Shown in pieces: positions 31,885 to 42,227 of a stretch of DNA of 64,000 nucleotides. The stretch covers positions 235,566 to 299,565 of the forward strand of contig CAVYKX010000004.1 of NCBI GenBank assembly GCA_963769215.1, given 5' to 3'. A model generated the notes under the pieces. That model searched no databases, was not told the DNA's origin, and was given only the letters and a program-made list of their open reading frames with translations. Within the stretch, counting starts at the first letter, position 1; each line of letters starts with the position of its first letter. Origin of the DNA: Candidatus Sulfomarinibacteraceae bacterium. GTDB lineage: Bacteria; Acidobacteriota; Thermoanaerobaculia; Thermoanaerobaculales; Sulfomarinibacteraceae. Position numbers and translations under genes: made by a program.

Positions 31885-32312
31885 CAACGATCTCCGAGAG
31901 CAGACATCATATCCGCCTCGCACACGACCTCATTTTCTACCAGTGCCCGGCCGTGGATCTTCGCGAAATTGCTCCGCTTCGCGATGACCTCGACTTCGAA
32001 AATCACCTGGTCGCCGGGCACCACGGGTTTGCGGAAGCGGCAGTTGTCGATGCCGGTGAAGAAAATGAGTTTGTCCGAACGATCTTCCACCTGGCTGAAA
32101 AGCAGATAGCCACCCGCCTGGGCCATCGCCTCGACGAGAAGCACTCCCGGCATGACGGGAGCCCCTGGAAAATGGCCAAGGAAATGGGGCTCGTTGATGG
32201 TGACGTTCTTGACAGCCCGAATCGTTGACTCACCCATTTCCAGCACCCGATCGATCAGCAGGAAGGGATACCGGTGCGGCATCACGCTCAAGATATCGGT
32301 GATGTCGTTCAT
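31884..32312 (-). CDS. fabZ: 3-hydroxyacyl-ACP dehydratase
   Basis: [25 protein letters not shown]...[27 protein letters not shown]. 142 aa, intact. Confidence 0.9.
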
Positions 32313-33349
32313 CTCTTGGACTCCTCGAGGTCTGAAAGTCGCGCCTCGAGCTCCTTGACCTGTTGTCGAAGCCCATCGAGACGCTGAATATTGGCGTTGG
32401 TTTTCAACCATTCGCGGTGGGGCCGACCCGGATGACCCGACAACATCACACCGTCGGGGACGTCCTTCGTGGCCACGGCCCGCGCAGCCAGAACGACACC
32501 ACTGCCGATATCTATGTGACCGACGCATCCGGCCTGGCCGGCAATGACCGTATGGTGGCCGATCTTGGTCGAACCCGAGATCCCCGACTGCGCCACCAGC
32601 AGGCAGCGCTTCACCGACCTGGACGTTGTGGGCGATCTGCACCAGATTGTCCACCTTGGTGCCGCGTCCGATTCGGGTTTCCCCGAGGGCGGCACGGTCT
32701 ACGCAGACGTTGGCGCCGAGCTCCACGTCGTCTTCGAGCACGACGATGCCCACTTGCGGAACCTTGTGGTGCATCCCGTCGACCGTTGCGAACCCGAAAC
32801 CGTCGGACCCGATCACCGTCCCGGAGTGGATCACGCAGCGGTCGCCGATCCGGCATCCGTCCTCGACCACAACCCGTGGGTGCAAGACACTGCCGTCGCA
32901 CCGACCACGACATCCAGGCCGAGCACACATCCGGCGCCGATCGCACTGCCGGCCCCAATCGAAGATCCCGCTCCGACGTACAGCCAGTGGGCCGACGCTG
33001 GCGTCTTCGCCAAGCTCGACGTCCTCCGCCACCACCGCCGACGGATGGACTCCAGGCGGAGGCGACTCGCTGCGGGTAGAAGTACTCGAGAGCGCGTGCC
33101 AACGCCAGATAAGGTTCCGGGCACACCAGGAGATTCCTACCCGGTAGCAACGAAGCGTCGGCAACCAAAATGGCGCCGGCTCGCGAAGAAACGCGCCTCC
33201 TCCACGTATTTCGGGTTGTGGAGGAAGCTCAGGTGCTCCTGCTCCGCGGTGTCCAGGGGGCGCACACCTTTGATCTCATGGTTTCCATCCCCGACGATTT
33301 CCGCACCGAGAAGGTCAGCGAGGTCCGAGATGCGCGCTGAACGACTCAC
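32309..33349 (-). pseudogene. lpxD: UDP-3-O-acylglucosamine N-acyltransferase, at least 4 frameshifts
   Basis: The fragments lie in different frames: [42 protein letters not shown] / [21 protein letters not shown] / [20 protein letters not shown]...[41 protein letters not shown] / [27 protein letters not shown]. Overlaps the fabZ start. Confidence 0.8.
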
Positions 33350-33874
33350 TGGCGGTGTTGAATCGCCGGATCACTTCATCGGTGATGTCGATCGTCTCGT
33401 CAGCGTAGACCAGTCCGGACTGGAACTTGTTGAAGATCAGGGTGATGCCCCTGCTCCTTGCCAACCTGGTTGATGATCGGCAGGATCCGCTGCTTCGAGC
33501 CCGCCGAGCTCGCGGCGGCGCGCATCGTCGAGCTCGCGCTTGGCATCGTCCTCGAATCTGCGGATGCGCGATGCGTCTTGTCCTCGATCTCCTTGTTCAG
33601 CTCCGCGAGCCGCTCCTCGGACAGGGTGAAGCGTTGCTTGTTGAACTGGTCTTGAAGGGTCGCGAGCTCCTGCTGCAGGTGCCGGCCTTCCTCGACCTTG
33701 GCGTCCGGCAACGCTCTTTCAGCTTCTGGAGCGCCTCCTTGCCCGGATCGGACTCGGTCACCACCCGTTGCACGTCGATCACCGCGATCTTTGATCTGCG
33801 CGGCGGCCGGAACGGCAACCGCGATGGCCGAGCGCGACCATCACCGCTCGCTACGAATCACTGAACGATGTCAT
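33346..33874 (-). pseudogene. skp: OmpH/Skp periplasmic chaperone, several frameshifts
   Basis: Fragments IAVIDVQRVVTESDPGKEALQKLKE, LQQELATLQDQFNKQRFTLSEERLAELNKEIEDK and KEQGITLIFNKFQSGLVYADETIDITDEVIRRFN (my translation). The inferred stop forms a GTGA overlap with the lpxD start. Confidence 0.6.
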
Positions 33875-33900
33875 TTCTATCCTCCAGATTGATCTTGGTT

Positions 33901-39464: not shown

Positions 39465-40618
39465 TCATAGCGCAGTCCCTCGGCCGGCTCTCGGCGCGCG
39501 ACCAGCCGCGACGGCAGCCACGAGGCCGCTGCCGCGAGAGCCCAGCGCCGACGAGCCATCACCAACGCGACCATCCGGGTCCACCCGGAACGGCACCGAC
39601 GAAACCACGAACACCCCGCGCGGCAGCGGCAGCGCCCGGATGCGATCGAGCGCCAACGATATGGCAGACACCCAGGACGGCACCGACCACCGACCCGACC
39701 ATCCCGATGCCGAGACCGAGCAGCGAGGAAGAGCCGCCGGAGCGCGTTCGGCACCATGCCGAGCCTGGCCAGCACCGCGAGATCGGTTCGTTTCTCGGCC
39801 GCCACCATGGCCACGTTGCAGAGCAGATTGAGGGCGGCCACGACCAGCATCAGCCCCACGGCCACGAAGATCATCACCCGCTCGAGGGCCAGGGCGAGCA
39901 GCAGCGGCCGGTGAAGCTCTTCGAGACCCTCGCACCTCAACGGTCTTGCAGCTCGCCGGCCAGCACCTCTCGCAACCCGCGCGCCCAAGCCCCAGGGATC
40001 GTCAGGATCACGAAGCTCGATGGCCTCGACCACTGCCTCACCCCACAACAGACGCTGCGCCAGCTCGAGGGGAAGCCGAACCGCGCCCGACTCCGCTCCG
40101 GGTTCCGGTGATGCACGCCGGCGACCTCGACCCGCAGCCCGAACCGGCAGCGGCCCCATAGGGGTCAGCCGCTGGCGGGGCGAGATCACCTGCACCTCGT
40201 CGCCCCTGCCGACCCCGAGCCGGGCGGCAAGGATCGTGGTCGATCGCCACATCGAGGGCGTCAGAGCGGCCGACCACCGATGCCGGAACGGCATCCGTCG
40301 GCGACGAAACCAGGCACGTACCACGCACGACCTGCACCATCTCCACATGCCGGCAAGCTCGTCTTGCAAGACCGAGGCCAACTTCGACGGATCTTGCGAG
40401 CCGCCGGCCATCCGCCGGGACGACACGGGCGTGGGCGCGCGGCCGACGATCTCGGCACGGATGCTCGACTGAAAGCCCTCGAGCAGGGCCAGGGTGACCA
40501 CCAGGGCCATGACGCCAAGACCGAGACCGACCAGCGAAATCAGGGTCACCGTCGCGACGTGGGTCCGTCGGCGAAGCCCGATCAGGTAGCGCCGCGCAAG
40601 GTGCAGTTCAGCGGACAC
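39461..40618 (-). pseudogene. lolE: LolC/LolE-type lipoprotein-release permease (FtsX-like), frameshifted; start uncertain
   Basis: [56 protein letters not shown] at the N-terminus, and C-terminal ...[10 protein letters not shown]-stop. Confidence 0.65.
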
Positions 40619-40734
40619 GTTTCCCGGCCCCTTCTCCAAGAACCCGGATTGACGTCCGGCTGGCCGCACTGCCCGGCCCGAAGCGCAGCCTCGCTCGCCG
40701 GTGTTCACTCCGCACCGCACCGACGGCTCCGGTC

Positions 40735-42227
40735 TCACTCCCGCGGCCGCAGCAGCGGAAAGAGGATGACGTCGCGGATCGAGGTCTGGTTGGTCAGCAG
40801 CATGACCAGGCGATCGATCCCGATGCCCTCGCCACCGGTCGGCGGCATGCCGTGCTCGAGTGCGAGAACGAAGTCCTCGTCAACGACACCTCCCTGTTCG
40901 GCGGCCTGCTCCTCAAGGCGGCGCCGCTGCTCGGCCGGATCGTTGAGCTCGGTAAAGGCGTTGGCGATCTCGAGCCCGCCGATGAAGAGCTCGAAGCGCT
41001 CCACCACATCGGGATCGTCCGGCGTCGATTTGGCGAACGGCGAGATGTCGCGCGGAAAGTCGATGATGAAGGTCGGGTTGATCATCTTCGGTTCCGCCGT
41101 CATCTCGAAGAGCTCGGCGAAGAGCTTGCCGTCCGAACGTTCGTCGATCCGTTCGCACATCGAGCTCGGCGCGCCGCCGCCTCCATCGCTGCGGCGGTCG
41201 GTCAGATCGTCCGGTGTCAGATCCGAGTACTCGAGAATCGCGTCGCGCAGCTCAGCCGGCGCCACGGCCGGCTGAAGTCGATCGTATGCTCTCCCCACTC
41301 GACTTCGAGCGTGCCGATCGATCTCCTCGGCAACACCGTGTCACCAGCTCCTCGGTGAAGTCCATCAGGAGCTCGTAGTCGGCGTAGGCCCAATAGAACT
41401 CGAGCATCGTGAACTCGGGGTTGTGCCGGGTCGAGATCCCCTCGTTGCGGAAGTTCCGGTTGAGCTCGAAGACCCGCTCGAAGCCGCCGACGATCAGCCG
41501 CTTGAGATAGAGCTCCGGCGCGATGCGCAGGTAGAGGTCGAGGTCGAGGGTGTTGTGGTGGGTCACGAAGGGCCGCGCCGTGGCGCCGCCGGGGATCGGC
41601 TGCATCATCGGCGTTTCGACCTCGATGAAACCCGGCAGCCTCGAGAACGGCGGCGGATGCGAAGAAATGATCTCGGATCGAATCTCGAAGACCTCTCGTG
41701 ACTGCGGGTTGGCGAGCAGGTCGAGGTAGCGCTGGCGAGCACGCGCCTCGCGGTCCGCGAGCCCGTGGTATTTCTCCGGCAAAGGGCCGCAACGCCTTGG
41801 CGAGCACCTCGAGCTTGCTGACCGCCACGCTGAGTTCGCCGGCGCGGGTCCGAAACACCGTTCCCTCGACACCCACGAAATCGCCGAGGTCGAGAAGCTT
41901 GAATACCTGCCACGACATCTCGTCAAGGTCGTTCTTTCGCAGGTAGAGCTGCATCTGGGAGGCGCCGTCGGAGAGGTCGGCGAATGACACCTTGCCATGG
42001 CCCCGCACCGCCCGCAGCCTGCCGCCCAATCGCACCTGCGGCGCTTCCGTTTCAAGCTCCTCGGCGGTCTTGTCCTCGAAGCGGGATCGCGCGGTGCTCA
42101 CCGACTCGTCAACCCTGTACCGCCGCGGGTATGGATCCTGTCCGAGCTCGAGCAGGGCATCGAGCTTTGTACGCCGATTGGCAATCAGCTGTTCGACTGG
42201 TTGTTGGGCTTCGTCCTTGGTCTCCAA
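40735..42227 (-). pseudogene. lysS: Lysine--tRNA ligase (class II), at least 2 frameshifts
   Basis: N-terminal OB domain ([30 protein letters not shown]), core ([55 protein letters not shown]), and C-terminus ([39 protein letters not shown]), each in a different frame. Confidence 0.85.

Follow-up and report, generated by a model that had tools for sequence, protein, structure and literature searches.

The stretch analysed here (the window) comprises 64,000 nt of contig CAVYKX010000004.1 (positions 235566-299565; C4 below) from a Candidatus Sulfomarinibacteraceae genome assembly (GCA_963769215.1) of 3.82 Mb in 34 contigs, estimated to be 67% complete. Its subject is a block of seven minus-strand genes, lpxD, skp, bamA, a clp-like gene, lolD, lolE and lysS, whose reading frames are interrupted many times over. 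We compared this block with the orthologous loci of seven relatives from the same genus, aligned with MAFFT and about 75% identical to the window in DNA sequence; in public records these relatives are Candidatus Sulfomarinibacteraceae or Thermoanaerobaculales metagenome-assembled genomes. In one of them (G010, locus L008) an unbroken series of genes runs along the minus strand: a rubrerythrin-like gene, lpxA, fabZ, lpxD, OmpH/skp, bamA, a gene for an 820-aa Clp-type ATPase, genes for a lolD-like ATPase and a lolC/E-like permease, lysS, and a gene for a rluB-type pseudouridine synthase. The block in the window is syntenic with this series, since it occupies, between fabZ-lpxA and rluB, exactly the position where all relatives hold intact genes. 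Gene names were assigned from family profiles applied to the intact orthologues, not to the broken frames of the window; the orthologues matched profiles for LpxA, FabZ, LpxD, OmpH/Skp, BamA, a Clp-type AAA+ ATPase, LolD-like and LolC/E-like proteins, LysS and an RluB-type pseudouridine synthase.

When the G010 proteins were aligned to the window by tblastn, the block genes could be followed only by hopping between frames, whereas lpxA, fabZ and rluB each matched in a single frame. The lpxD gene (32321-33352; NCBIfam TIGR01853 on the orthologue) is recovered in three pieces, in frames -1/-3/-1, and the OmpH-like skp gene (33351-34146; Pfam PF03938 on the orthologue) in four segments, in frames -2/-3/-2/-3. 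Six frame segments are needed for bamA (33904-36244; TIGR03303 on the orthologue), at least three (-2/-3/-2) for the Clp-type AAA+ ATPase gene, which is ClpA/B/C-like (36433-38802), and four pieces (-2/-3/-1/-3) for lysS (40738-42236; TIGR00499 on the orthologue). The genes for the lolD-like ABC ATPase (38774-39436) and the lolC/E-like permease (39464-40705, a frame of 425 aa) are each open in one frame, yet they are only 53-55% identical to their G010 orthologues; the low identity is explained by short out-of-frame excursions, or islands, inside the open frames. On the left, the clean flank (31102-32312, minus strand) consists of lpxA (31102-31887) and fabZ (31887 to about 32312) and contains no private indels; on the right, likewise free of them, it consists of the rluB-type pseudouridine synthase gene (42318-43148, minus strand).

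We counted indels under a strict rule, by which an event had to be private to the window with all seven relatives in agreement. This gave 89 frame-shifting indels between positions 32896 and 41781: 59 of +1, six of +2, 18 of -1, four of -2 and two others. A looser criterion gave about 110 window-specific indels of 1-2 nt between 32610 and 41787, such that the error-dense patch carries roughly one indel per 85-100 nt. The same strict rule yielded between zero and four events in each relative, and none in the left coding flank of the window (30527-32600). A codon-usage hidden Markov model (HMM) trained on this genome made 50-odd frame switches within 32314-42222 and behaved normally outside. An earlier note on this stretch had described the same seven genes as shattered by frameshifts within sharp boundaries. 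The tblastn frame hops and the absence of the 89 indels from all seven relatives confirm the first point, and both the positions of the indels in the alignment and the switching of the HMM support the second. The start that the note gave to the block, 32309, needs to be moved, because the errors begin at about 32610, inside lpxD, and the 3′ end of that gene (32321-32610) is clean; the rest of the block stands as described.

Genes truly bearing some 90 frameshifts would have drifted. We read the window in the frames of its G010 orthologues, skipping the private indels by treating them as gaps. With the indels set aside, there was not one in-frame stop in the 2,712 codons of bamA, clp, lolD, lolE and lysS, and the amino-acid identity of these five genes to G010 was 0.70-0.85, equal to or higher than that of the intact relatives. 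The ratios of non-synonymous to synonymous change could not be told apart from those of the relatives; for clp the ratio was 0.38, compared with 0.28-0.47 in the relatives, and for lysS 0.40, compared with 0.45-0.58. Nor did DNA identity to the relatives drop on passing from the flanks into the block. We conclude that the coding sequence beneath the indels is under normal purifying selection, and the lack of stops together with the normal ratio argues against real decay.

The indels themselves have the character of errors. Insertions outnumber deletions by about 3:1 (65 against 22), a ratio resembling the one that the proovframe preprint (10.1101/2021.08.23.457338) gives for raw PacBio errors, with insertions at 8% and deletions at 3%. 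The +1 insertions are spread uniformly over the three codon phases (17/21/21), and we found no strong sequence context shared among them, the best 4-mer, TCGC, covering 10 of the 59. Three more specific sources were considered. Homopolymer errors are ruled out, since 43 of the 59 single inserted bases are singletons that lie outside any homopolymer. An error linked to methylation or to a sequence motif is a weak candidate: GATC is only mildly enriched (13.0 per kb, against 8.6-11.0 in the relatives), and TCGC accounts for no more than those 10 insertions. Finally, the idea that an insertion sets two alleles of a polymorphic third position side by side is rejected, as the phase is uniform and the insertions often fall between invariant columns.

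The earlier note had proposed looking for a second intact copy of the affected genes in the assembly. A tblastn search of the whole assembly, which is 67% complete, found no other copy of lysS, bamA, lpxD, skp or lolE, and only distant paralogues; this fits an artefact rather than a decaying duplicate. We conclude with high confidence that the block is an artefact of assembly or polishing, 9.2 kb of poorly corrected consensus in an otherwise accurate contig, and not a real feature; the organism itself almost certainly carries the seven genes intact. The note had likewise favoured an artefact over the simultaneous decay of essential genes, and its judgement is upheld by the lack of a second copy, the absence of stops, the normal selection, the phase-blind indels and the existence of other patches of the same kind. 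The error profile fits what a noisy consensus of long reads would retain at low depth.

Such patches are not confined to this locus. A codon-usage HMM screen of the genome flagged 64 similar blocks, about 411 kb in total or some 10% of the genome. In a simulation with one random indel per 100 nt, the HMM made 40 switches per 8 kb instead of 12.8, as many as in the flagged blocks. We checked one flagged block, on contig C3, against G010: two genes, of 1,161 and 376 aa, hop frames there, and the larger carries 33 small insertions as against four small deletions. Elsewhere, paralogues of clp and of the lolD-like gene hop frames as well (C15:96184-97899, C11:11367-11982, C10:48094-48631, C28:262934-263558, C24:6731-7184 and C4:93715-94277). 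Frame breaks are thus scattered over the genome, and the other patches strike genes unrelated to those of the block.

We also compared a 17-kb control region of the window (14-31 kb) with four relatives. Private indels are few in it, and five of them, all +1 insertions, cluster within 270 nt at 22668-22939 (plus strand), where they form a small second patch that breaks an aldehyde dehydrogenase gene towards its 5′ end. In the open frame of this gene the match to the Pfam family Aldedh begins only at profile position 121. The description of the flanking genes as intact accordingly holds for lpxA, fabZ and rluB, and has to be qualified for the aldehyde dehydrogenase gene. Within the same region, two further indels that none of the four relatives shares, a +2 insertion and a -1 deletion, are separated by 12 nt at 20264-20276; they fall in a minus-strand gene where two long open reading frames, in different frames, overlap (19446-20126 and 19723-20778), and this is probably another isolated frameshift induced by error. 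In the relative G008, contigs C22 and C23 both match the window at 14-24 kb, apparently representing two copies or two strains. Beyond the right end of the block, the intergenic DNA between rluB and the next gene holds a repeat of about 180 nt (43220-43410), with many copies, 74-83% identical, on other contigs; copies were found on C3, C4, C7, C9, C11, C18, C21, C22 and C23 of the same genome.

Given that the block is an artefact, the question becomes why the consensus failed here. One proposal, raised by the earlier note, is that the block is native DNA of the same organism as the flanks, in which short-read coverage was lost over very GC-rich sequence so that long-read errors went uncorrected. 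The block does average 0.65 in GC, as against about 0.60-0.62 in the flanks; windows dense in frame switches are slightly richer in GC across the genome (0.63 versus 0.614); and the boundaries are sharp. However, errors are equally dense in the left third, at 33-36 kb, where GC (0.605-0.63) is much the same as in the genome as a whole, whereas the window at 50-56 kb has a GC of 0.63-0.66 and is clean. GC richness alone therefore fails as the cause, and that part of the note fits the data poorly.

The composition at synonymous sites is a further difficulty for this proposal. We took GC at third codon positions (GC3) with the positions set by the frames of the relatives, and the measure is consequently independent of the HMM. 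In the window, GC3 is 0.674 for lpxA and 0.696 for rluB, in the two flanks, but within the block it is 0.875 for bamA, 0.880 for clp, 0.820 for lolE and 0.842 for lysS. Each of the seven relatives, in contrast, has a near-constant GC3 over all ten genes, with no step. After removal of gene and genome effects, the residual standard deviation of GC3 across the locus is 0.069 for the window and 0.021-0.043 for the relatives, with window residuals of -0.10 and -0.11 in the flanks and of +0.08 and +0.09 for bamA and clp. In the clean control region the GC3 of the window lies steadily 0.066 below the mean of the four relatives, with a residual standard deviation of 0.032. The block thus differs by 0.10-0.19 in GC3 from the level of the contig elsewhere and, because the relatives' orthologues have no local enrichment of GC3, this step is specific to the present assembly.

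The same shift recurs in a second patch. In the patch on C3, GC3 is shifted by +0.12 to +0.16 relative to G010, as compared with about +0.02 in clean control DNA, and over the whole genome GC3 averages 0.82-0.84 in the HMM-flagged windows and 0.76 in all others. A bias of the HMM as the source of the shift in flagged windows is ruled out, since in simulation the method adds only +0.006. In a separate part of the window, 44400-60400 (C4:280-296 kb), the HMM-based GC3 is high (0.80-0.88) and the frame-switch count normal; this may reflect natural heterogeneity, or else a higher-GC population whose sequence is well covered here. Given an assembly-specific step of about 0.10-0.19 that is not seen in the relatives' orthologues and that returns in a second patch, we regard an origin of the block in the organism's own GC-rich DNA as unlikely.

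The foreign composition at synonymous sites instead makes a different or locally divergent population the most likely source. Judging by composition, the error patch probably derives from a co-occurring population of higher GC; the patch would most likely represent that population, or else a locally divergent segment of a strain, at which accurate reads may have been too few to correct the consensus. The same process could have operated at roughly 60 other patches of the genome. The authors of proovframe note that rare members and local heterogeneity of populations leave parts of long-read metagenome assemblies unpolishable (10.1101/2021.08.23.457338). In several respects the block resembles chimeric or strain-mixed contigs: a step in GC3 occurs although the block is syntenic, the assembly contains no second copy, and the signature is repeated in another patch. 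The likeness here is one of composition; the donor is not among the 12 species genomes of the same genus, for which the best DNA identity was 0.78.

Several points weigh against this account. The case for an artefact was made from the assembled sequence. Among 5.8 billion public proteins no near-identical LolE was found, the best match being 59-62% identical. The identity of the nearest relative shifts only weakly, from locus L007 (0.752) in the left flank to loci L002 and L003 (0.776 and 0.772) in the block, and the boundary in composition is resolved no more finely than about 0.5-1 kb. Moreover, the 270-nt patch at 22668-22939 requires no foreign origin. A variant of the account is that, beneath the errors, the sequence of bamA, clp, lolDE and lysS, genes of envelope biogenesis and translation, is a genuine import, acquired by homologous recombination from a higher-GC congener. 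We hold this to be a minority possibility. If it were true, the error patches across the genome would mark strain-specific recombined segments that were left unpolished only because they are unlike the dominant population.

The alternative that the genes are truly dead, being a decaying duplicate or a relic whose functional counterparts belong to the third of the genome missing from the assembly, fares much worse. With an assembly only 67% complete there is room for an intact copy elsewhere, and a foreign composition would be compatible with an extra copy that had been acquired. However, bacterial pseudogenes are expected to have a deletion bias and a spread of indel lengths, whereas here insertions prevail and nearly all events are of 1-2 nt. 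Nor would decay readily account for some 90 frameshifts beside zero nonsense mutations with an unchanged substitution ratio, for a block that sits in the conserved syntenic position of all relatives while no other copy is present in the assembly, or for some 60 other patches that strike unrelated genes. We therefore consider real decay highly improbable. Restoration of the frames by a biological route, be it programmed frameshifting, quadruplet decoding or transcript editing, is effectively refuted: the excess of +1 events is all that speaks for it, whereas there is no common slippery or four-letter context (TCGC, at 10 of 59 insertions, being the best), the insertions fall in all codon phases with -1, -2 and +2 events intermixed, and the indels occur in none of the relatives.

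Viewed against known systems, the block belongs to a familiar class, that of indel errors which fragment genes in long-read assemblies and in metagenome-assembled genomes and which frameshift correctors such as proovframe were made to address (10.1101/2021.08.23.457338). Like other errors of this class, from PacBio continuous long reads (CLR) or Nanopore reads, the indels are small, break conserved genes, are private to one assembly and keep the protein signal when the frame changes are tracked, and they are patchy, as is seen where depth or the homogeneity of the population is too low for polishing. The block is unlike the usual members of the class in that its indels are not bound to homopolymers, are biased towards insertion and lie in sharply bounded blocks, and in that it departs from the remainder of the contig in synonymous-site composition. 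To the pseudogene blocks of reductive genome evolution the resemblance is superficial: many adjacent genes are interrupted in both, but here nonsense mutations are absent, selection is not relaxed and deletions are not in excess, and the genes affected are essential and single-copy.

The link between error patches and a foreign GC3 is the new point beyond the earlier note. It also has a practical use, as error patches tied to a foreign synonymous-site composition provide a cheap flag for such regions that needs no reads. The finding is a matter of data hygiene rather than biology: about one-tenth of this species-representative genome consists of patches riddled with frameshifts, in which essential genes are broken into spurious short or garbled proteins, and these patches probably depress the completeness estimate of 67%. 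The artefact is already spreading into databases, as seen from the 425-aa lolE open frame (39461-40738, minus strand), which is held as a called protein in a public collection although about one-quarter of it is out of frame. Pseudogene counts, pangenomes, selection analyses and phylogenies that use this genome should first have the patches, about 10% of it, masked or corrected, and they should allow that the patches may carry the sequence of a second population. For the organism itself, lpxD, skp, bamA, the clp-like gene, lolD, lolE and lysS are to be treated as intact.

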